A stretch of 64,000 nucleotides of DNA from a virus (lineage: Duplodnaviria; Caudoviricetes), in the IMG/VR virus record IMGVR_UViG_2930438282_000003, positions 1-64,000 of that record. One strand, written 5' to 3'. Both the position numbers and the translations under genes were made by a program. The notes beneath the pieces are model-generated. The model did not search any database. It was given only the letters and a program-made list of their open reading frames with translations, and had not been told where the DNA came from. Position 1 is the stretch's first letter, and each line of letters opens with the position of its first letter. This document shows, in pieces, positions 14,703-24,743 of this stretch.

Positions 14703-17700
14703 GTGCCCTACATCAACTCCACCTCCCGCTCCTGGGCGGCAGCATCCGCCGAGGCCAACGCCCCCAAGCGAGTCCGCGCCTACAAGCACGACGGCGGCGA
14801 TCTGTGCGTGTCAGATTGGTTCGCGGGATGCGGAGGCTCCGGACAGGGCGCTGATGCGGTCCCCGGCCTGCGCGTGGCCTTCGCCGCGAACCACTGGCGG
14901 CAGGCCATCAAGAGCCACCAATTCAACTTCCCGGGCGTTGCGCACTACATCGGTGACATCCGCAAGGCCCCTGTCTGGGCCTGGCCGATCACAGACGTCT
15001 TCTGGGCCAGCCCGGAATGCTTCCCGGCCGGAACGCTGATCCTCACCCGACGTGGCCATGTCCCCATCGAGGACGTCCAGGTTGGTGACGAGGTGTTCAC
15101 GCACGAACGCCGGTGGCGGCCGGTCAAGGTCACCATGCGCAAGCTCGCCGAGACCGTGCGCGTGAAGGGCGTCGGATTCGCGGGCGGCATCGAGACCACC
15201 GCAGAGCACCCCTTCTACACCCGCCAGCGAACGAAGGTCTGGCAGGACAAGAGGCATGGCTACCGATGGAGGCTCACCGGTTCACCCGAGTGGACCGAGG
15301 CGAAGAACCTGCAAGGCCGGATGTGGGCAACGCCGATCGACTTCGGTGAGGAGCTACCCGTCCCGCCGGTAGGCGGCCGGGGTGTCGACCAGAACCGCGA
15401 GTTTTGGTGGATGGTCGGCCGCTGGCTCGGCGATGGTTCGCTGCGGCTTAAGCCACGCACCGCGGCCCGCCTGAAGCAGCCGGCCACCCGCCGCGCTCCG
15501 CGCCCAGCCGGCTCCCCGTGCGTCGTCTGTGGGGGTGCGGCCCGTCCCGACGGACGGAGCAACGCGGGCCAGGTGTCGCCCTACTGCTCTACCACCTGCA
15601 AGGCGAAGAACAGCCGGAAGTCCGAGCGCGGCCGGTTCGAGGTGGTCATCTCTTGCGGAAAGCACGAGGTGCAGGAGTTGGGTGCCCGCCTCGCCGAGAC
15701 CACCGGACTCCGCTGGAACCTGCGGGAGATCCGGACGGCCTGCAACTTCACCACGGGGCATTGCGGCCTGACCGAGTGGCTGGTCGAGCACTTCGGTCAG
15801 CACGCGGACGGCAAGGGGCTCCCGGCCTGGGCGCTGACGATGCCCGAGGCTGACCGGCGCGCGTTGCTCCAGGGGTACCTGTCGGCCGACGGCTGTGTGA
15901 GCGCTCCGTACACCTCGATGGCCACGGTCTCCAAGCGCCTCGCGGTCGGTATTCGGCTGCTCGCCAACTCCCTCGGGTACGTCGCGAACATGTCCGGCCC
16001 GCACGTCCGCAAGGGCGTGCGCACCATCGAAGGTCGGGTGGTCAACGAGCGTCCGCAGTGGAAGGTCAACTGGATCACCGATGGCCCGAAGCACGCCTTC
16101 CACGTCGATCAGGACGGGTACCGGTGGGCGCCGGTCAAGTCGGTGGAGCCCACCGGGCGCACGGTTGAGGTCTTCAACCTGAGCGTGGCCGAAGACGAGT
16201 CGTACATGGCCAACGGAATCATGTCGCACAATTGTACGAACTGGTCTATTGCCAAGGGTAAGAAGCGCTCCTTCGCCAAGGCCGTTCAGGGTGACCTGCT
16301 CAGCCTGTATGCGGACATGGAGGAGGAGAAGTTCAAGACGGCCGACCAGGAGGACAACGAGCCGACCGCAGAGGAGGAAGCCAGCCGGGCACTGATGGAA
16401 GAGGTGCCTCTGTACCTGCGCGGGGTGATCGAACGCGGCGGCCTCATCAAGGCCGGTGTGGTCGAGAACGTGGTCGATGTCCGGGCCTGGGCCGAGTGGG
16501 ATGCGTGGCTGGCGGAGTTCCACAAGCTGGGCTACCGGACGCGGGTCATCGCGCTGAACAGCATGCACGCCAACCCGCGCAGAGTGCACCGCGCCCCGCA
16601 GTCCCGCGACCGGCTGTACGTCGGCTACTGGCACAAGAGCCTGGGCCGGACGCCTGACTGGGACAAGTGGCTGCGCCCCAAGGCGTACTGCGCCGGCTGC
16701 GACGAGATGGTTTCCGCCCTGCAGGTCTTCCGCAAGCCCGGCCAGGACATGGGCCGGTACAAGTCGAGCTACGACTACAGGTGCCCGCGCAAGAGCTGCC
16801 GCGCGCTCGTCGACCCGGACGTCCTGCCCGCCGCGGCGGCGATCGACTGGTCCATCAAGGGCACGCCGATCGGCTCCCGCCCGAAGTCGAAGGAGTGCCC
16901 GGAGGGCCTGGCCCCGAACACGATGGCCCGTATCCGGGCCGGGATCGCGAAGTACTGGCCGCAGCCCGGCGAGCAGGTCGGCCAGGAGGCCCTGTTCGAC
17001 GACCAGCCCGCCGGGAAGGTCGCCCCGTTCCTCGTCCCGACCGGCGGCACCTGGCGCAACGGCCCGGCCGGGGTGGACGTCCCGATGTCGACCCGGACGA
17101 CGGTGGAGAGCGACGCCCTGGTCCTCCCGCCCATCCTGATCCCCTGCGAAGGCCGCGAGGGCAAGAAGCCGATGTCCCTTGACGGCCCGCTGCGGACCCA
17201 GACGGCCCGGCTGGAAACGGCGCTCGCCTACGTCCCGTTCGTGGTCCCGATGCGCGGCGGCGGCGACAAGGAGAAAGCGCGGTACGTCAGCCACCCGGTC
17301 CACACGGTCTCGGCCGGCGGCAACCATCACGGCCTGGTCATGGCACCCCGCCCGCTGATCATGCGGAACAACACCCCGAACGGCGATCCCGCCCAGATGG
17401 TCACCGGCGCCGACGAGCCGTTCCGGACCATGACGACCACCGGCCACCAGTCGCTGATCACGCCGGACCCGCTGCTCGTCCCGTACTACGGCAACGGCCA
17501 GGCCCGCCCGACCAGTGAGCCCGTCGGCGCCCTGCCCACCCGTGACCGGTTCGCCCTCCTCGACGCCGACGGCGAGTACGACGTCTCGAAGGTGCTGTTC
17601 CGGATGCTTCAGCCCAAGGAAATCCAGCGGGCGATGGCGTTCGCGGACGACTACAAGATCCTGGGCAGCAAGCGCGACACCGTCCGGCAGCTGGGGAACG

Positions 17701-17816
17701 CGGTTACCCCGAACGCGGCCGAGGTCCTGCTGTGCGCGCTCGTCGAGTGCATCACCGGCGAGGAGATCGACCGCTACGCGCCGCCCGCCGAGCTGGAGTT
17801 CGCCACGACCGCCTGA
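14703..17816 (+). CDS. C5-cytosine DNA methyltransferase precursor containing an intein
   Basis: DWFAGCGG motif I, ANHW, SPE-C-TNWS motif IV (split), VENV motif VI, QSRDR motif VIII, QLGNAV motif X. Confidence 0.93.
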   Translation: MPYINSTSRSWAAASAEANAPKRVRAYKHDGGDLCVSDWFAGCGGSGQGADAVPGLRVAFAANHWRQAIKSHQFNFPGVAHYIGDIRKAPVWAWPITDVFWASPECFPAGTLILTRRGHVPIEDVQVGDEVFTHERRWRPVKVTMRKLAETVRVKGVGFAGGIETTAEHPFYTRQRTKVWQDKRHGYRWRLTGSPEWTEAKNLQGRMWATPIDFGEELPVPPVGGRGVDQNREFWWMVGRWLGDGSLRLKPRTAARLKQPATRRAPRPAGSPCVVCGGAARPDGRSNAGQVSPYCSTTCKAKNSRKSERGRFEVVISCGKHEVQELGARLAETTGLRWNLREIRTACNFTTGHCGLTEWLVEHFGQHADGKGLPAWALTMPEADRRALLQGYLSADGCVSAPYTSMATVSKRLAVGIRLLANSLGYVANMSGPHVRKGVRTIEGRVVNERPQWKVNWITDGPKHAFHVDQDGYRWAPVKSVEPTGRTVEVFNLSVAEDESYMANGIMSHNCTNWSIAKGKKRSFAKAVQGDLLSLYADMEEEKFKTADQEDNEPTAEEEASRALMEEVPLYLRGVIERGGLIKAGVVENVVDVRAWAEWDAWLAEFHKLGYRTRVIALNSMHANPRRVHRAPQSRDRLYVGYWHKSLGRTPDWDKWLRPKAYCAGCDEMVSALQVFRKPGQDMGRYKSSYDYRCPRKSCRALVDPDVLPAAAAIDWSIKGTPIGSRPKSKECPEGLAPNTMARIRAGIAKYWPQPGEQVGQEALFDDQPAGKVAPFLVPTGGTWRNGPAGVDVPMSTRTTVESDALVLPPILIPCEGREGKKPMSLDGPLRTQTARLETALAYVPFVVPMRGGGDKEKARYVSHPVHTVSAGGNHHGLVMAPRPLIMRNNTPNGDPAQMVTGADEPFRTMTTTGHQSLITPDPLLVPYYGNGQARPTSEPVGALPTRDRFALLDADGEYDVSKVLFRMLQPKEIQRAMAFADDYKILGSKRDTVRQLGNAVTPNAAEVLLCALVECITGEEIDRYAPPAELEFATTA
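15018..16232 (+). mobile_element. Intein (405 aa) with LAGLIDADG-type homing endonuclease
   Basis: Starts CFPAGTLILT, block B TAEHPF, LAGLIDADG-like MVGRWLGDG and LLQGYLSADG, ends VFNLSV...MSHN followed by Cys. Confidence 0.92.
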
Positions 17817-17900
17817 CCTGCACGTCCTTAGAAGTCCTTTTGCCTATTCAGATTGGGCTATGCGGTTAGCGCAATCTGAATGGCGTAAAGATGGAAGTAG
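17814..17900 (+). repeat. Conserved upstream hairpin element, copy E
   Basis: TGACCTGCACGTCCTTAGAAGTCCTTTTGCCTATTCAGATTGGGCTATGCGGTTAGCGCAATCTGAAT...GAAGTAG; its TGA is the C5-MTase stop. Confidence 0.88.
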
Positions 17901-17926
17901 ATCAACCCCACACGAATGGAACGCAC

Positions 17927-18829
17927 ATGACCGGCACCCTGCACACCGACCCCACCACGGCCGCCCTGTCCAGGGCCTGCGAGGAAGCCTGGCAGATCGC
18001 ACTCAGCGCCAGAGCCACCTTCCAGCACGGCACCATCGCGTACGTGGCGAGCCTCATCCGTGAGGCCCTGCCCGACGCGGCCGCCATCACCATCGACACC
18101 GACGAAGCCGAGCTGTACGAGATCCGCGACGCGAGTGGCCAGCCGCTGTACCGGGCCCCGTTCACACCCGCCAGCCCCCTCGGCGACAGCGCAGCGGATG
18201 ACATCAACGACCTACTCGCCCAGGTCCTCCCCTTCGGCGGGCTGGAAGACGCCGGATGGGAGACCGCCGCCGAGCGCCTCCCGTACATGACCGTCCGCCT
18301 GCCCGGCGCCCCCGAGGTCGACCGGCGCAAGGCGCACGGCTTCGCCGCCACCCCCTTCCTCATGCTCGACGTCCGCGCCGAGTTCACCGCCGGCAGGCGC
18401 GCGTTCACCGTGGACGGCCCGCACCCGCTACACCAGCGGGAGACCCGTGATCGGATCCGCGCCGCCATGGCCAATGCGGGCTACGACGTCCCCGACGGCG
18501 CCCTCACGGTCACCGCCCACGGCCGCCTCACCCAAGGCGCCACCGCCGCCGACCTCGCGATCGCCGTCACCGCACTCGCCGCCGCCGGGCGCTGCGACCC
18601 GAGCGTCCTGCGCACCGTGGCGTTCATCGGGGAACTCGGCCTCGACGGCCGGGTACTGCCCGTACCCGACGTCAACGGAGCCGTCCGCACCGCATACGCC
18701 AGCGGCTACACCACCGCGGTCGTCGCCGAAGACGACCTCAGCAACGTCGACGTCGCAGGAATCGGGATCCACGGCGTCGACAACCTGCACCTCGCGATGA
18801 CGCTCATGCAGCACTTTGAAGCGAAGTAG
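17927..18829 (+). CDS. Protein with C-terminal ComM/YifB (Mg-chelatase ChlI N-terminal, Lon-like) domain, no ATPase
   Basis: RETRDRIRAAMANAG...ADLAIAV...FIGELGLDGRVLPV matches the ComM N-terminal domain; no Walker A. Confidence 0.78.
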   Translation: MTGTLHTDPTTAALSRACEEAWQIALSARATFQHGTIAYVASLIREALPDAAAITIDTDEAELYEIRDASGQPLYRAPFTPASPLGDSAADDINDLLAQVLPFGGLEDAGWETAAERLPYMTVRLPGAPEVDRRKAHGFAATPFLMLDVRAEFTAGRRAFTVDGPHPLHQRETRDRIRAAMANAGYDVPDGALTVTAHGRLTQGATAADLAIAVTALAAAGRCDPSVLRTVAFIGELGLDGRVLPVPDVNGAVRTAYASGYTTAVVAEDDLSNVDVAGIGIHGVDNLHLAMTLMQHFEAK

Positions 18830-18878: not shown

Positions 18879-19008
18879 GCCTATTTAAGCGCCTCAACAC
18901 CCTGAGCCCTCCACCATCTCAAGGTCGGGCAACGAAGCGGCCACCGGCGAAACTGCGACCCTCCCGGGCCTGGTCTGCGAGGGCTCGTCCGCTGAGCGCT
19001 GAGGTCAA

Positions 19009-19055
19009 CGGACCCTATATCCGGTGGCGTTAAAGCTGCTCGGACCCTATATCCG
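19009..19055 (+). promoter_or_regulatory. Tandem 15-bp putative operator repeats upstream of the PadR gene
   Basis: CGGACCCTATATCCG at 19009 and 19041. Confidence 0.55.
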
Positions 19056-19084
19056 TTGCCAGACAAGGGTGTTACTCTCAAACC

Positions 19085-19423
19085 ATGGACATCAACCTCA
19101 CGCCGAACGTCGTGAAGTTGCTCCGGGCCTTCCTCGAAGATCCGGAGGAGCGCCACTTCGGCACCCAGCTCACGAAGAAGGCCGGGATCTCGCCCGGCTC
19201 CCTGTACCCCGCACTGCGCCGCCTCGAAGGCGCCGGCTTCATCACCGGCGAGGAGGAGCAGATCGACCCCAAGGCCGAAGGCCGCCCTGCCCGCCGCTAC
19301 TACACCCTGACTGGGGAAGGCGCCCAGGAAGCGCACCTGCTCCTCGCAGAGTTCAGTGCCAGCGTCGCCCCGCCCGCCAGGTCCCCAGGTTGGCTGACCA
19401 GTCCAGCACCCAAGGGGGCCTGA
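19085..19423 (+). CDS. PadR-family transcriptional regulator
   Basis: GSLYPALRRLEGAG...GRPARRYYTLTGEG. Confidence 0.9.
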   Translation: MDINLTPNVVKLLRAFLEDPEERHFGTQLTKKAGISPGSLYPALRRLEGAGFITGEEEQIDPKAEGRPARRYYTLTGEGAQEAHLLLAEFSASVAPPARSPGWLTSPAPKGA

Positions 19424-19426
19424 CCC

Positions 19427-20023
19427 ATGGAAACGCTGTCCTTACTGGCGACTGCGACCGCTGAACACGGCAAGACCTTCCTCGGCGAGGACGCCCTCGG
19501 TTGGCGCATCGCGCTCATTGCAGCGCTTGTCGCGGCCGTCGCATACGAGCTGACCATGGCGCTGACGCGCAACATCACCCTGCGAATCCCCTTCCTCGTG
19601 CTGCAGCTCGGCCGGCTCCTCATGGACAAGGAGGCATGGAAGCTCCAATACGCAGAGTGGAAAGCCGAGCTGTGGGTGATCCTCCGAGAGGGGCACAAGC
19701 TCTGGCCCCTCCGGTTCATTCACGGCATGTGGTGGGCTGCCAGTGTTCTCCTCTACGCCCGAAGGGCGGCCAAGGCGGACACGCGCACCATGCAGCCCAG
19801 GCCCGCCCGGGTCAAGGAATCCGGGCGCATCTCGAACGTGATCGCCCTCACCGTGATGATCATCAATTTGGCCGACTCGATCCGGCAAGCGTGCGGAGGT
19901 GCACCCACGGAAGTACCTGAGCCCCTGGCGGCAGTGATGCTGTTCGGATCCCTCGCCCTCGCAGTGGTCGTCTCGGAGTGGCTCATCCGCCGCCGACGTC
20001 AGCGACGCCAGCGACATTCGTGA
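19427..20023 (+). CDS. Membrane protein paired with PadR
   Basis: Several hydrophobic segments; starts 4 nt after the PadR stop. Confidence 0.7.
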   Translation: METLSLLATATAEHGKTFLGEDALGWRIALIAALVAAVAYELTMALTRNITLRIPFLVLQLGRLLMDKEAWKLQYAEWKAELWVILREGHKLWPLRFIHGMWWAASVLLYARRAAKADTRTMQPRPARVKESGRISNVIALTVMIINLADSIRQACGGAPTEVPEPLAAVMLFGSLALAVVVSEWLIRRRRQRRQRHS

Positions 20024-20073
20024 TGTATGGTCCCTAAACGTCCGGTCGTCCTGAGCAGCGGCGCGACCGGCAT

Positions 20074-20148
20074 GCGCCGGAGGTGTAACCGCCGCACGGC
20101 TCCCATTCCAGGGAGCAGGACCACGTTCAAGTCGTGGCCGGCGCTCCA
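20074..20148 (+). tRNA. Non-canonical tRNA-Gly-like gene (75 nt, encoded CCA)
   Basis: Cloverleaf: acceptor GCGCCGG/CCGGCGC, D stem GTGT/GCAC, anticodon stem GCTCC/GGAGC around CATTCCAG, T arm CCACG-TTCAAGT-CGTGG, T73 then CCA. Confidence 0.85.
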
Positions 20149-20153
20149 CGACG

Positions 20154-20180
20154 GGCCCCCGCCATCCCAGGGCGGGGGCC
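20154..20180 (+). terminator. Hairpin downstream of the tRNA-like gene
   Basis: GGCCCCCGCC / GGCGGGGGCC stem followed by TTCGT. Confidence 0.55.
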
Positions 20181-20274
20181 TTCGTCATGCCCCGCAAACC
20201 ACCCTCGGGCCTCGATTGCCCCAGGTCAGCTATCTTTGCCGCCCTTTGTCTCCAGGACCTCGCAGGAGCGGCCC

Positions 20275-21630
20275 ATGTTCCACGGATCGATCCCCGCCCC
20301 CCTCCGCTCGATCATCTACGAGCACGCCGGGACCTGGCCCGGCGAGGACATCTACGTCGGCTGCTCCGGGAACTTCACCATCGAACGGGTGCTGCACGCC
20401 CGGTTCGGCGACACCCGCCGCGTCCACGGCAACGACATCCAGGCCTACAGCTGCGCCCTCGGCTGGTACCTCGCCGGGCAGGACCTCCACTACACCCTGC
20501 GCGACGAGTACGAGGAGCCCCTCGGCTGGCTCCACCCCTACCTGGAGGACCGCACCGATCTTCTCGCCACCCTCATGCTGGGCACCCGGTTCCTGCAGTA
20601 CGTCGGCAAGGACGGCGCCTACTACCGGCGCATGCTGGACGCCACCCGAGAGCAGTGGCCGCGCATGCACGAGAAGACCGCGACGAAACTGCGGAACCTG
20701 GAGACCCGCCTCGGCTCGTTCTTCGCCGGCGACGTCCGCGACTACCTGGACACCGAAGTCCCTGCCGACGCCCCCGTGGTCATGTTCCCGCCGTTCTACG
20801 CGTCGGACTATCAGGCCCAGTTCGCGCCGATCGACGCGGCGTTCGACTGGCCCGAGCCGTCGTTCGACGAGCTGACCGAAGACGGCAAGGAACGCATCAT
20901 CGAACAGGTCCAGGACCGGCCGAACTGGGTCCTCGGCCTGCACATCGAACGCCCCGAACTGCGGGACAAGCTCGCCGGCGTCGTCCAGACCGCGAACCGC
21001 GGCCTCCCCATCTACGTGTACGCGGCGGCCGGGCCGCGCCGTATCGTCCGGCCCCGGCAGCCCATCGAAACGATCCGCATGCCGAAGATCAGCCCCGGTG
21101 AGGACCTCGGCGACCGCATGACGATCCACGTCCTCACCGGCGGCCAGTTCGCCGCGATCCGCTCCCAGTTCATGTCCAAGAGCATCAAGCCCGGCAGCCC
21201 GCTCATCGCGTGCGCGGTCGCCGTCGACGGCAAGGTCATCGGCGCGTTCGCGTACCTGCCGCCGAAGTTCGACCCGAACACCGCCTACCTCATGAGCGAC
21301 TTTCCCGTGTCGTGGACCCGCTATCGGCGTCTCGCGAAGCTGATCGTGATGGCCGCGTCCACGAAAGAGGCGCAGCTCCTCGTCCAACGGTCCCTGTCGA
21401 AGCGGATCGACGCCTGGTCGACGACCGCGTTCACCGACCGCCCCAACAGTGCGAAGTACGGGCGCGGCATCCCCGGCGTGAAGCTGCAGAAACGCACCGA
21501 GGCCAGCCCGAAGGACCCCGGCGACGGCATCCACCGCTACCAGCTCCAGTACGGCGGCCCCCTCGGCACTTACGACCTGAACGAAGCGCTCACCCTGTGG
21601 AAGACCAAGCACGGCAAGGACCTGCGATGA
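20275..21630 (+). CDS. Putative DNA-modification enzyme: degenerate Dam-like MTase domain plus C-terminal GNAT-like domain
   Basis: YVGCSGNFTIE...HGNDI SAM-binding-like region; FPPFY in place of DPPY; C-terminal VAVDGKVIGAFAY / AYLMSDFPV / RYRRLAKLIV / TTAFTD pattern resembling GNAT; AGGAG SD before ATG 20275. Confidence 0.65.
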   Translation: MFHGSIPAPLRSIIYEHAGTWPGEDIYVGCSGNFTIERVLHARFGDTRRVHGNDIQAYSCALGWYLAGQDLHYTLRDEYEEPLGWLHPYLEDRTDLLATLMLGTRFLQYVGKDGAYYRRMLDATREQWPRMHEKTATKLRNLETRLGSFFAGDVRDYLDTEVPADAPVVMFPPFYASDYQAQFAPIDAAFDWPEPSFDELTEDGKERIIEQVQDRPNWVLGLHIERPELRDKLAGVVQTANRGLPIYVYAAAGPRRIVRPRQPIETIRMPKISPGEDLGDRMTIHVLTGGQFAAIRSQFMSKSIKPGSPLIACAVAVDGKVIGAFAYLPPKFDPNTAYLMSDFPVSWTRYRRLAKLIVMAASTKEAQLLVQRSLSKRIDAWSTTAFTDRPNSAKYGRGIPGVKLQKRTEASPKDPGDGIHRYQLQYGGPLGTYDLNEALTLWKTKHGKDLR

Positions 21631-22568
21631 CCGACACCACCACCCCGCTGTTCCGGCCCAAGCTCGTCCGCCGCGACCCCCGCACCCTCACCGGCCTCGA
21701 AGTTAACGCCAGATACATGCGGAAGGAGGAGTACGACCGGCTGGTGGAGAACATCCGCCGCGACGGCTGCCTCACCTCCACCCCCCTCATCTACTCCGGT
21801 GGCGAGTACGCCGAGGGCCGCGAACTCATCCTGTCCGGCAACCACCGCACGATGGCCTCGGTGGAAGCCGGCCTCGAAGAGATCGACTGCATGCTCATCG
21901 AGGAGCAGCTCACCCGCCCCCAGCTCGTCGCGATCCAGCTGTCCCACAACGCCATCAACGGCCAGGACGACCCCGCCACCCTCAAGCAGCTCTACGAAGA
22001 ACTCGACGACGTCGACTGGCGCGCCTACTCCGGCCTCGACGACGAACAGCTCCAGCTCCTCGCCGAAGTCCAGCCCGAGGGCCTGTCGGAGGCGAACCTC
22101 GACTTCGCCACCGTGTCCCTGATCTTCCTTCCGCCCGAGCTCGAAGCCGCCCGCGAAGCCTTCGACCAAGCCCGCCTCGGCCAGAACGAAAGCTGGCTCG
22201 CAGCACGCGCCGACTACCAGCAAACCCTCGACACGCTCGCCTCCACCCACGCCGCTCACAAGGTCGGCAACGTCGCCACCGCCCTCCACGCCATCCTCGC
22301 CATCGTCGAGAACCACCTCGACGAACTCCAGGCCGGCTACACCGCCCCCGACGGCACCCACCTCCACACCGGGCACGTCGGCCTGGAAACCGTCCTCGGC
22401 TCCCGCACCCTCCCAGCACCCGCCGCCGTCACCATCAACAAAGCCATCGGCGCCGCAGAAGGACGGGGGGAGATCGACCAGGGACAGGGCTGGCGCCTAC
22501 TCGAGCGTCTCGCGGGCCAGTACCTGTCCGGCCCGAACCACGAACTCCTCACGGACGGCCCCGAGTGA
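21627..22568 (+). CDS. ParB/Srx N-terminal-domain protein
   Basis: NARYM...LVENIRRDG...ILSGNHR motif; ATGA overlap with the upstream gene. Confidence 0.8.
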   Translation: MTDTTTPLFRPKLVRRDPRTLTGLEVNARYMRKEEYDRLVENIRRDGCLTSTPLIYSGGEYAEGRELILSGNHRTMASVEAGLEEIDCMLIEEQLTRPQLVAIQLSHNAINGQDDPATLKQLYEELDDVDWRAYSGLDDEQLQLLAEVQPEGLSEANLDFATVSLIFLPPELEAAREAFDQARLGQNESWLAARADYQQTLDTLASTHAAHKVGNVATALHAILAIVENHLDELQAGYTAPDGTHLHTGHVGLETVLGSRTLPAPAAVTINKAIGAAEGRGEIDQGQGWRLLERLAGQYLSGPNHELLTDGPE

Positions 22569-23155
22569 GCACCCGCCCACCCATCACCCTCGACCCCCAC
22601 ACCGACCCATGGGAACGACAACCCCACGAGACTCCCAAGAAGCACGGCCAATTCGTCACCTACCGCGACCTCGGACGCACCCGAACCCTTACCGAAGCCG
22701 CTCAGAGGCTGACACTCGCGTACGGGCACGTGAGGAACCTGGCCTCCGAGTACCGGTGGCGGCAGCGCGTCGAGGCGTACGACAGGCACCTGGACGACCA
22801 GTACCAGGCGATGTGGCTGCAGGAGCGGCGGAGGGCCGCCGAGACCGACGCGAAGATCCTCGGGGCGGCGATCGGCAAGCTGGCGCAGCGGCTGACGACG
22901 ATCAACGCGGCCGACATGACCGTGGGCGACTTCATTCGGCTGATGGACGTCGCCATGCGGCACCGGCGGGTCCTGTTCGGTGATCCGACGGAGACGATCG
23001 CGGTCACCGGCGAGGGGGCGAACCCGCTGGCGCAGCAGTTCGCCGAGTTCGCGCAGATGTCCCCGGAGCAGCGTCGCACCAGGCTCGCCGATCTGGCGGA
23101 CTCGGTGAACCAGCGGATCCGCGCGGTCGACGGCAGCGACGACGAGGAGGAGTGA
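22565..23155 (+). CDS. Putative terminase small subunit
   Basis: PWERQPHET...FVTYRDLGRTRTL HTH-like N-terminus; directly before TerL; GTGA overlap. Confidence 0.7.
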   Translation: MSTRPPITLDPHTDPWERQPHETPKKHGQFVTYRDLGRTRTLTEAAQRLTLAYGHVRNLASEYRWRQRVEAYDRHLDDQYQAMWLQERRRAAETDAKILGAAIGKLAQRLTTINAADMTVGDFIRLMDVAMRHRRVLFGDPTETIAVTGEGANPLAQQFAEFAQMSPEQRRTRLADLADSVNQRIRAVDGSDDEEE

Positions 23156-23159
23156 GCCG

Positions 23160-24743
23160 ATGACGGTTGCCGTGAGCGAGCTGGAACACCTGGACGACGC
23201 GGAGGTCTACCGGCAGCTGGAGGCCGCGCGCCGGTCGATGAGCGAGGAGCTGCTGCGGGACCCGGTGACGCTCGCCCGCGGCCTGGACCGCACGTACCGG
23301 ATGCGGCCGCACCTGCGGATCATCGGGGACGCCTTGGCGGAGGTGGGGCGCGGCGAGTACGACCGGCTCCTCATCCTGACCCCGCCGCAGGTCGGGAAGA
23401 GCACGACGGTCGCCGAGTGGTTTCCGTACTGGTGGCTGTGCCTGTATCCCATGGACCGGGTGGCGGTGACGTCGTACGGCGACGACCTGGCGCTGAAGCG
23501 GGGCATGACGATCCGCGGCTACGTCGAGGAGTACGGCCACGAGTACGACCTCGCCCTGCAGTGGGGGTCGTCGGCGAAGCAGGACTGGTCGCTCACCGAG
23601 GGCGGCGGCGTCCGGTCGGTGTCGGTCGGTAAGGGCCTGACCGGGCACCCGGTGAACCTGCTGATCGTGGACGACCCTCACAAGGACCGTGCGGACGCCG
23701 AGTCGGAGGCGTCCCGGCGGGCGCTGCACGACTGGTACTCGTCGACCGCTCTGAAGCGTCTCCAGCCGGACCGGAACGCCGTGGTCGCGATCCAGACCCG
23801 CTGGCATCCGGACGACTTCGCCGGCCGCCGCCTGGAGGAGGAAGGCCGCACCGAGGACGGCGGCCGGTGGAAGGTCATCCACCTGCCTGCGGTCGCCGAC
23901 GCGAAGTTCGGGGCGGACCCGCTCGGCCGGGCCCCGGGGGAGCCGCTGCCTCATCCGAAGATCCCCACCAGGGACAAGAAGGCGCTGCGGGCGTGGTGGG
24001 CGGACATGAAACGCACGTCGATCGTGCGGGACTGGCACGCCCTCGCCCAGGGCGACCCGCAGCCGGCGGAAGGAGCCCTCGTGTCGGACGACCTGCTGCG
24101 GATGCTGCGGGACTCGAGCACCGCGGTGGAGCCGCAGAAGATCGCAGTCGCCATCGACCCCTCGGGTGGCGGACGAGACGTCGCAGGCGTCATCGGCGGG
24201 TTCCTCGGCGACGACGGCCGCGTATGGGTCACCGACGACGTATCGGCGGCCATGTCCTCCGCCGAGTGGTCCACGGTGGCCTGCCTCCTCGCCTATCGCA
24301 CGAACGCGGCGATCATCTACGTCGAGTGGAACTACGGCCGCGACATGTGCGTCCTCGCCATCCAGACGTCGTGGGAGAAGCTCCAGAACGAGGGCGAGAT
24401 CCCCAAGGGCACCCTGATGCCCGCCATCGCTCCGGTCCGCGCCAAGCAGGGCAAGCTGCTGCGGGCGGAGCCGATCGCCCAGCAGATGGTGCAGGACAAG
24501 GTCCGCTTCCGGGGCGTGTTCACCGACATGGAACGCGAGTGGGCCACCTGGCAGCCCACCGACCCCGACTCGCCGGGCCGTATCGACGCCTCCTGCATCC
24601 TCATCTACGGCCTCATCCCGGAAGCGAACCAGGGCGCCATCGCCCACGCCCCGCTCCCGAAAGCCCCACAGGCTAGCCAATTCGGGCGGGGCGGCCCGGC
24701 GGGCGGTGCCGCGGCGGCGTATGGACGGAGGATCGGCAAGTGA
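23160..24743 (+). CDS. terL: Terminase large subunit
   Basis: Walker A PPQVGKST, Walker B LLIVDDP, QTRWH coupling motif, nuclease-domain AIDPS, YVEWNYG, KLLRAEP. Confidence 0.9.
   Translation: MTVAVSELEHLDDAEVYRQLEAARRSMSEELLRDPVTLARGLDRTYRMRPHLRIIGDALAEVGRGEYDRLLILTPPQVGKSTTVAEWFPYWWLCLYPMDRVAVTSYGDDLALKRGMTIRGYVEEYGHEYDLALQWGSSAKQDWSLTEGGGVRSVSVGKGLTGHPVNLLIVDDPHKDRADAESEASRRALHDWYSSTALKRLQPDRNAVVAIQTRWHPDDFAGRRLEEEGRTEDGGRWKVIHLPAVADAKFGADPLGRAPGEPLPHPKIPTRDKKALRAWWADMKRTSIVRDWHALAQGDPQPAEGALVSDDLLRMLRDSSTAVEPQKIAVAIDPSGGGRDVAGVIGGFLGDDGRVWVTDDVSAAMSSAEWSTVACLLAYRTNAAIIYVEWNYGRDMCVLAIQTSWEKLQNEGEIPKGTLMPAIAPVRAKQGKLLRAEPIAQQMVQDKVRFRGVFTDMEREWATWQPTDPDSPGRIDASCILIYGLIPEANQGAIAHAPLPKAPQASQFGRGGPAGGAAAAYGRRIGK

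Follow-up and report, generated by a model that had tools for sequence, protein, structure and literature searches.

The window analysed here comprises 64,000 nucleotides, positions 1 to 64,000 of the virus record IMGVR_UViG_2930438282_000003 (Duplodnaviria; Caudoviricetes), which is 110 kb long and classed as a provirus. It carries a non-canonical tRNA-Gly gene, followed on the same strand by a gene coding for a fusion of a Dam-like and a GNAT domain, a ParB-like gene and the genes for the small and large terminase subunits (Table 1). Together with a promoter and leader of its own, the tRNA-Gly, the Dam-like/GNAT enzyme and the ParB-like protein probably constitute a conserved module, located just upstream of the terminase genes. 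The sequence features, conservation, covariation, linkage and folds reported below are directly supported. With moderate confidence, we consider the tRNA-Gly most likely to be a glycine donor for chemical modification of the phage's own DNA, and not a tRNA for protein synthesis. The main point of the locus is the neighbouring enzyme gene, which was absent from a preliminary description of the tRNA element.

Table 1 Features of the tRNA-Gly locus, in coordinates of the window.
Feature	Position	Strand	Remarks
-10-like hexamer TATGGT, putative promoter	20026-20031	+	~45 nt 5' of the tRNA
Leader hairpin CCGGUCG...CGACCGG	20040-20071	+	Directly 5' of the tRNA; -17.5 kcal/mol, z -2.31
Non-canonical tRNA-Gly(UCC) gene	20074-20148	+	Encoded CCA; direct reading, fold, model R1, family covariation
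Acceptor stem of tRNA-Gly	20074-20080 with 20138-20144	+	Perfect 7 bp
A8 of tRNA-Gly	20081	+	
D-loop AACCGCC of tRNA-Gly	20087-20093	+	Without GG
Anticodon stem of tRNA-Gly	20099-20103 with 20112-20116	+	
8-nt anticodon loop CAUUCCAG	20104-20111	+	Anticodon U34-C35-C36 at 20107-20109
Extra A of anticodon loop, between C32 and U33	20105	+	Model-fitted alignment
T-arm of tRNA-Gly	20121-20137	+	T-stem pairs C49-G65, A51-U63
U73	20145	+	
Encoded CCA	20146-20148	+	
G+C-rich hairpin 3' of the tRNA, putative terminator-like or processing signal	20150-20186	+	-30.1 kcal/mol, z -3.86, 0/200 shuffles as good
Dam-like/GNAT fusion gene, 451 aa	20275-21630	+	Pfam PF22555 + PF22559; tRNA 126 nt upstream
ParB-like gene	21627-22568	+	Start overlaps stop of the enzyme gene
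Terminase small subunit gene	22565-23155	+	PHROG 6299, E 3.7e-24
Terminase large subunit gene	23160-24743	+	Pfam Terminase_6N E 3.7e-4, below cut-off

Read directly, the tRNA element has the sequence GCGCCGG-A-G-GUGU-AACCGCC-GCAC-G-GCUCC-CAUUCCAG-GGAGC-AGGA-CCACG-UUCAAGU-CGUGG-CCGGCGC-U-CCA. The preliminary description had reported a perfect acceptor stem of 7 bp with G1-C72, C2-G71 and G3-C70, a U73, an encoded CCA and a UCC inside the anticodon loop, along with A8, a D-loop devoid of GG and the T-stem pairs C49-G65 and A51-U63, and each of these is found in the sequence. Both versions it gave of the anticodon arm, an 8-nt loop or a 6-bp stem closed by a 6-nt loop, can be drawn; the minimum free energy fold, a cloverleaf of -37.7 kcal/mol (z -3.76; none of 200 shuffles as stable), uses the latter. 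The identity set for glycyl-tRNA synthetase (GlyRS), made up of G1-C72, C2-G71, G3-C70, U73, C35 and C36, is complete.

Failure or low scores in standard tRNA finders had been predicted as well, and neither ARAGORN nor the Rfam model RF00005 matched the element. ARAGORN called no tRNA across the 64-kb window, and RF00005 gave no match at E<=10 in 19000-21200, where the top Rfam match was mascRNA with 19.8 bits, and none anywhere in the 110-kb record. We ascribe this rejection to the departure of the element from the norm and not to the absence of a gene. Using a covariance model built from 88 tRNA-Gly genes that adjoin homologues of the enzyme gene (model R1), the element scores 72.9 bits (E about 4e-14), far above a chance match, a value owed partly to construction since the window sequence is among these 88. 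Four close relatives outside the model (loci L096, L111, L117 and L163) reach 79-84 bits. We read the window element as a genuine, functional phage-encoded tRNA derived from tRNA-Gly(UCC), and not as a product of decay.

Homologues of the enzyme gene were collected from 15 annotated phage records (Gordonia Clawzvirus, Mycobacterium Northamptonvirus), from IMG/VR and from GTDB with one genome per species. Deduplication resulted in 146 distinct loci with the gene start on the fetched DNA, leaving out L032, L085, L147 and L155, in which it lies off the fetched DNA. The encoded proteins share 33-93% identity with that of the window and originate from Streptomyces, Micromonospora, Nonomuraea, phages of Mycobacterium and Gordonia, as well as Chloroflexi, Selenomonadaceae and Oscillospiraceae (Firmicutes), and Planctomycetota metagenome-assembled genomes. 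With ARAGORN, 100 of the 146 loci yielded 101 tRNA calls in total; Gly is the name given to 100 of the calls, and the remaining one, whose 4-base anticodon is 'tcca', is unnamed. Upstream of the gene and on its strand lie 95 of these calls (60 UCC, 24 CCC, 10 ACC and the unnamed one); three are upstream on the opposite strand and three about 1 kb behind the gene. The R1 model added 13 copies missed by ARAGORN, all upstream on the same strand, namely those of the window, L002, L096, L111, L117, L132, L133, L163, L157, L172 and L055, and those of the Gordonia phages Soos and Clawz, which score 47-50 bits. A tRNA-Gly is present within the fetched flanks of 113 of the 146 loci. Searching the whole record for 10 of the remaining 33 loci, the other 23 being covered by their fetched flanks only, brought up two more, located 1.7 kb upstream in L008 and downstream in L092. 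The whole-record searches also returned some untyped matches, a distant one of 45.9 bits in the L054 record and three of about 40 bits at the edge of the L040 record.

Many loci have only 25-38 nt between the 3' end of the tRNA and the start codon of the enzyme gene, a spacing that implies a single transcript and makes co-expression likely. Mycobacterium phage Argie carries a tRNA-Gly annotated by the depositors, then the homologue and then a ParB-like gene, the distance from tRNA to homologue being 37 nt by the tblastn-inferred start and 87 nt by the annotated coding sequence. All protein-based counts refer to the 135 loci whose frame runs uninterrupted over 400-520 aa; in 118 of these a ParB-like homologue is the next gene downstream, and in 15 of the other 17 it follows slightly further on. 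At L056, two tandem tRNA-Gly(CCC) genes (982-1052 and 1057-1127) precede one homologue.

To describe what the tRNA family keeps, positions were counted in a model-fitted alignment of 100 distinct tRNA sequences (sequences, not loci), from which the minus-strand tRNAs of L058, L069 and L161 were excluded. C35, C36 and U73 are present in 100/100, and GCG/CGC at pairs 1-3 in 99/100. The sole break of these pairs occurs in L133 (1131-1202), with A3 opposite C70 (GCA...CGC). The residues kept in this way are those that Rietmeyer et al. (NAR 2020, PMC7826273) give as determinants of glycylation. Other positions drift: position 34 is U in 66 sequences, C in 20, A in 14 and G in none, position 33 is other than U in 27, and position 8 is A in 29. 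The D-loop has GG in only 49 sequences and lacks it in 51. GUUC of the T-loop is replaced by GUGC in 19 and by GUCC in 4, so that position 55 is G or C in 23, and in the Gordonia copies the T-loop is 8 nt long and lacks its usual motif. An encoded CCA is found in 53. In chromosomal tRNA-Gly of Streptomyces (five distinct sequences from two genomes) U33 is found in 5/5 and the usual GG in 4/5. Both A34 and a residue other than U at position 33 are unusual for decoding tRNAs, and ACC is not known as a normal bacterial glycine anticodon. The 14 ACC sequences include those of L074, L079, L081, L122, L129, L130, L134, L151, L168, L038, L039 and others, and a GCC anticodon never occurs.

Conservation of the fold was assessed in the 88-sequence alignment. 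The four helices are paired in 97.9% of cells and 16 of the 21 pairs are changed on both sides, with 372 cells showing such double changes versus 108 in shuffles; none of 500 shuffles reaches the observed covariation score. Sliding the helix partners by 1-3 columns leaves a pairing of only 37-46%. Acceptor pairs 1-3 are invariant, and pairs 4-7 as well as every pair of the anticodon stem covary. Compensatory stem change in homologues, which the preliminary description had set against random decay, is thereby confirmed. Together, the residues kept, those that drift and the maintained fold form the pattern expected for an RNA that needs its fold and glycine charging but not decoding.

A chromosomal tRNA-Gly(UCC) with related features was seen in genome G002 (L182, G002:C1:3946298-3946369), where a gene with the D-loop AGUAGUA lacking GG and the T-loop GUGCAAU adjoins ordinary tRNA-Gly(GCC) genes. 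It may be an extra-ribosomal, perhaps cell-wall, tRNA of the host and a possible ancestor of the phage copies. Genome G001 has an R1 match that is similar to it in position (L177, G001:C1:3670429-3670500).

The extra A of the window's anticodon loop is shared with L002 only, that is with 1 of the other 99 sequences in the alignment. L096 has a nearly identical tRNA with the normal 7-nt loop CUUCCAG. One pair of the anticodon stem is U-A in the window copy but C-G in that of L002, a double and compensatory change. The shared insertion and the later compensatory stem change point to an 8-nt loop that is derived but maintained, and not to an obviously dead gene. A different, separately arisen loop enlargement is found in L020 and L108, where ARAGORN reads the 4-base anticodon 'tcca'.

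The neighbouring enzyme consists of a Dam-like domain (residues ~1-275) and a GNAT domain (~280-447), matching the Pfam families PF22555, 'Phage DNA Adenine Methylase-like domain 1' (E 9.5e-105), and PF22559, 'Phage GNAT-like domain' (E 1.9e-57); its PHROG family, 7858, is listed as 'unknown function'. AlphaFold2 models are confident, the predicted local distance difference test score being 91.5 when the whole protein is modelled and 94.8 in the model of the GNAT domain. Foldseek matches the N-terminal domain to 7m6b and to E. coli Dam (2ore), and it has a Rossmann-type fold with the nucleotide-binding motifs I and II. Conserved parts are the motif I-like segment CSGNF, D54 as an acidic residue and, in motif IV, PP(F); C30, G32, E37 and D54 are invariant in 135/135 homologues. 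The nucleotide-binding motifs are present, but an aromatic residue stands where the DPPY motif has its catalytic D/N. Motif IV begins with F in 112, Y in 21 and H in 2 of the 135 homologues, and never with D, N or S; the window enzyme reads FPPF and does not have the Dam-type signature (D/N/S)PP(Y/F/W).

The C-terminal domain adopts a GNAT fold, for which the Mu protein Mom (8bv8_B) ranks third of 48,161 representative chains (VIA-align; Z 10.7, rmsd, the root-mean-square deviation, 3.3 over 143 aligned residues). With Foldseek, only generic acetyltransferases were among the matches listed for the GNAT model, and sequence searches of solved structures in the Protein Data Bank with the whole protein and with a profile of the GNAT domain returned noise only. 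The acetyl-CoA motif [QR]xxGx[GA] does not occur in the window protein; as a loose regular expression it matches somewhere in 28 of the 135 homologues.

Downstream, the product of the ParB-like gene shares 50% identity (E 2e-94) with a 'ParB-like nuclease domain protein' of Gordonia phage Soos, and its Pfam ParB_N match is weak (E 0.026, below cut-off). Modification enzyme, ParB-like gene, terminase small subunit and terminase large subunit follow each other in the order that characterises the phage 'ParB-terminase large subunit locus', which the cited sections of Iyer et al. (Bioessays 2015, PMC4738411) describe as a known home of DNA-modification genes.

Upstream, the putative -10 hexamer has counterparts of the TAnnnT type at equal distance in 30 related loci (TACGCT, TAAGAT, TACGAT, TATCAT, TAGCAT, TACAGT and others). 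A scan of 19900-20320 for consensus sigma-70 promoters and simple terminators found nothing; the hairpin behind the tRNA was missed by it because it has no T-run. This hairpin is kept in window-type relatives and missing where the tRNA sits 25-38 nt before the start codon. The leader hairpin, which could be a processing or regulatory element, recurs with differing stem sequences in the majority of loci of the Streptomyces type as well as in Soos and Clawz of Gordonia, and its position is common to L001-L013 and L095-L117. A hairpin before the gene is still present in L008, where other DNA displaces the tRNA by 1.7 kb, and in L097, which has no tRNA in the fetched flank, an arrangement that suggests insertions at that spot.

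Two further frames lie upstream of the module. One of 1037 aa at 14703-17816(+), a few kb away, combines a C-5 cytosine DNA methylase domain (PF00145) with Hint, LAGLIDADG and intein-splicing domains, and its product looks, by its domain matches, like an intein-interrupted methyltransferase. A 312-aa protein encoded at 17891-18829(+) matches ChlI (Mg-chelatase subunit), with weak Lon_C matches.

We propose the following course for the donation of glycine to phage DNA. Inferred in it are that the tRNA is charged but kept out of translation, that its glycyl group passes to DNA, which base receives it and what the ParB-like protein does. Host GlyRS would charge the tRNA, all known glycine identity elements being kept. 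The Dam-like domain would then locate a DNA site and flip out an adenine, and the GNAT domain, or both domains jointly, would transfer the glycyl group from the 3' end of the tRNA to the base. An analogue of this step would be the reaction of Mu Mom, in which N6-glycyl-dA rearranges to N6-carbamoylmethyl-dA. As a speculation, the former S-adenosylmethionine/adenosine pocket of the Dam-like domain may hold the terminal A76-glycine of the tRNA. The ParB-like partner might load or activate the enzyme on double-stranded phage DNA around packaging, and the modified DNA would resist host restriction.

If carrying the aminoacyl group is all that the tRNA is needed for, selection would hold its acceptor end, C35/C36 and the cloverleaf, and would leave U33, position 34, the GG of the D-loop, U55 of the T-loop and, in the window, the loop length free to drift. 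The preliminary description had proposed a tRNA chargeable by GlyRS and diverted from the ribosome. This view is partly supported in that it fits the comparative data, in which the identity set is held and ribosome-facing features are relaxed, and the Dam-like/GNAT gene would now add a concrete destination. We regard as evenly balanced whether the locus represents a widespread, undescribed module of DNA hypermodification with an aminoacyl donor supplied by the virus itself. In it, a dedicated tRNA-Gly that evolves away from translation, only its GlyRS identity elements and its cloverleaf being kept, would feed a fusion enzyme that aminoacylates adenine sequence-specifically with ParB-like help. 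Modification of DNA by way of a tRNA would then have arisen a second time, independently of Mom.

Several observations weigh against glycine donation to DNA. No tRNA was found in the searched DNA of 31 of the 146 loci, among them a whole clade (L040-L051, L084, L087) of about a dozen proviruses with ~42% identity, so the tRNA would be dispensable or replaced by a host tRNA there; this also fits a looser, accessory link. The four clade records searched whole contain no clear glycine tRNA (L040 only the untyped matches of about 40 bits), and a search of the 31 loci for an acceptor-type helix (GCG...CGC-U, 7 pairs) gave only chance matches inside coding sequence. The clade may reflect a host-tRNA-dependent state. 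On the side of the enzyme, ordinary acetyl-CoA acetyltransferases come within 1 Z unit of Mom in the structural comparison and thus tie with it, so that the fold does not point to tRNA use. Comparing the GNAT domain with Mu Mom by hhalign gives a probability of 1.2%, with no detectable sequence similarity, and Mu Mom belongs to a different Pfam family (PF25680, E 2.4e-75, versus PF22559 here). As the Dam-like domain keeps its nucleotide-binding motifs, some methyl-transfer chemistry is possible. Regarding the tRNA, many associated copies look fully canonical (e.g., L091 and L057) and could also serve translation, and the L002 copy carries a C4-A69 mismatch. The 8-nt loop might weaken recognition of C35/C36 by GlyRS, in which case the window copy could be a recently disabled allele.

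An ordinary translational tRNA-Gly, decoding GGA/GGG or replacing a host tRNA-Gly cut by a defence nuclease, would make the window copy recently damaged and its adjacency to the enzyme meaningless inherited synteny. Phage tRNAs are common, and decoy or replacement roles are discussed for actinophages in the cited part of PMC13313380. The canonical look of many copies, the tRNA-less clade, rejection of the window copy by ARAGORN and Rfam and the ancestral 7-nt loop of L096 are all in line with such a role. However, all 101 ARAGORN calls beside the gene are glycine (counting the unnamed one), across phyla and down to 33% protein identity, and the element is the only tRNA found in the 110-kb record (ARAGORN on the 64-kb window, RF00005 on the whole record). 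A34 and positions 33 other than U, at the frequencies given above, speak against it as well, and in the window and L002 the compensatory stem change arose after the loop insertion. In the 7 window genes on which the codon argument rests, GGC is the commonest glycine codon (174/260) and GGA the rarest (23/260); as no associated tRNA has a GCC anticodon, codon supply is unlikely to be the reason for its presence. Overall, we consider a translational role unlikely.

A rather unlikely explanation is that the tRNA is linked to the enzyme without donating glycine to DNA. It could be a substrate, with the GNAT domain acetylating Gly-tRNAGly in the manner of some toxin GNATs or the Dam-like domain methylating the tRNA, or it could act in cis in the mRNA leader, as an RNase P site or a sensor of glycine charging. 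GNATs acting on charged tRNAs are known (legend of Fig. 5 in PMC13219725). The GNAT fold matches acetyl-CoA enzymes as well as Mom, and the 5' leader of many loci contains the tRNA, 25-38 nt ahead of the start codon. However, the fold of a Dam-like DNA enzyme, the conserved ParB-like partner and the ParB-terminase position all point to a DNA target, invariance of C35, C36 and U73 would be superfluous in a mere signal for processing, and the acetyl-CoA motif is missing from the window protein and present in a minority of its homologues.

Classical frameshift suppressors of the sufD type are glycine tRNAs whose anticodon loop is enlarged by a base, and the 8-nt loop could accordingly be thought to read a four-base codon such as GGAA with UUCC in order to express a frameshifted phage gene; the 4-base anticodon of L020/L108 is a parallel in another lineage. 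The preliminary description had ranked +1 suppression as less likely, and it stays very unlikely. The extra A lies 5' of U33 and not within the anticodon, the insertion occurs in only 2/100 with one further lineage having a different enlarged loop, and the drift across the family (C33, A34, loss of GG) is unlike that of a decoding tRNA. The genes next to the tRNA are open frames without interruption; phage genes with a frameshift were not searched for. Finally, a remnant of an attP/attL/attR integration site in a tRNA-Gly gene, suggested by the provirus status of the record and by the integration of actinophages into tRNA-Gly genes (cited part of PMC13313380), is rejected as extremely improbable, since the whole tRNA and not merely its 3' part is present, inside the phage next to the terminase genes, and the same internal place is occupied in lytic-phage records, at 51.8 kb in Argie and at 12.5 kb in Soos.

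Modification of DNA that depends on a tRNA has only just been established, for the single family of Mom, which borrows a host tRNA. If glycine donation by the phage tRNA holds true, a second, unrelated-looking GNAT family with similar chemistry would exist, fused to a sequence-reading Dam-like domain. Phages would then encode tRNAs for a non-translational purpose, which would help to explain some 'odd' or 'pseudo' phage tRNAs rejected by gene finders. With their C33, A34, 8-nt loops and altered T-loops, the tRNAs of the family would also form a natural series on which the ribosome no longer imposes its constraints, useful to separate synthetase identity from the requirements of the ribosome and EF-Tu. 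Sequence-specific attachment of an amino acid to DNA by an enzyme would be of practical interest. The module is present in phages that can be cultured on laboratory strains (Mycobacterium smegmatis mc2155, Gordonia rubripertincta), its carriers including the Mycobacterium phages Argie, Taptic and Jeon and the Gordonia phages Soos and Clawz, and can be tested directly.

Full-text search of the literature, excluding subscription journals and supplements, found no description of a tRNA gene that neighbours a Dam-like/GNAT or Mom-like gene. The closest precedent is Mu Mom, a GNAT that, according to the main text of Silva et al. (Nat Commun 2026, PMC13219725; bioRxiv 10.1101/2023.03.24.534169), moves glycine from Gly-tRNAGly to adenine N6 of double-stranded DNA; the product then rearranges into its carbamoylmethyl form. 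There, all glycine isoacceptors work and the authors suspect recognition of the acceptor end. The same main text does not contain the terms 'fusion', 'methyltransferase', 'Mycobacteri', 'Actino' or 'phage-encoded tRNA'; its supplements (similarity network, neighbourhoods), which may bear on this, lie outside the scope of this statement. Mom and the window enzyme have in common a phage GNAT fold, with Mom among the three best structural matches, and Mom modifies adenine post-replicatively with Gly-tRNAGly as donor. They differ in that the window GNAT domain has no detected sequence similarity to Mom, is fused to a Dam-like domain and is paired with a ParB-like protein, its activity being predicted, and in that the window phage encodes its own tRNA-Gly whereas Mom borrows that of the host.

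The order of modification enzyme, ParB-like gene and terminase genes is shared with the ParB-terminase systems, in which ParB homologues can be required activators; activation of phage thymine dioxygenases on double-stranded DNA by such homologues is reported in the cited part of O'Toole et al. (PNAS 2026, PMC13229309; see also PMC4738411). In the cited parts of both papers, the enzymes are methyltransferases or iron- and 2-oxoglutarate-dependent (Fe/2OG) dioxygenases and no tRNA partner is described. Compared with the Dam family, represented by E. coli Dam, the N-terminal fold, the motif I-like CSGNF, D54 and the PP(F) of motif IV are alike, whereas the D/N/S of motif IV is F, Y or H in all homologues and a GNAT domain is fused. 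Suppressors of the sufD type are likewise glycine tRNAs with an 8-nt loop; here, however, the extra base precedes U33 and represents a rare allele in a family defined by its linkage to an enzyme. The GUGC T-loop of staphylococcal tRNAs resembles part of the phage family.

The non-proteogenic tRNAGly species of Staphylococcus are charged by the normal GlyRS through G1-C72, C2-G71, U73, C35 and C36, bind EF-Tu poorly and are diverted to the GNAT-fold transferases FmhB, FemA and FemB, their differences residing in the D and T arms (PMC7826273). Departures in these arms, including the absence of G18-G19, are also found in the window copy and the phage family. The comparison with these tRNAs, already drawn in the preliminary description, holds as an analogy but not as common descent, as that lineage is said to be present only in staphylococci (PMC7826273). 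Moreover, the acceptor of glycine there is a peptidoglycan precursor and not DNA, and the tRNAs considered here are phage-borne and would avoid the ribosome and EF-Tu by prediction. By analogy with these systems, the locus would join tRNA-dependent DNA modification with extra-ribosomal glycine tRNAs, and would add to them a different enzyme architecture and a virus-encoded donor.

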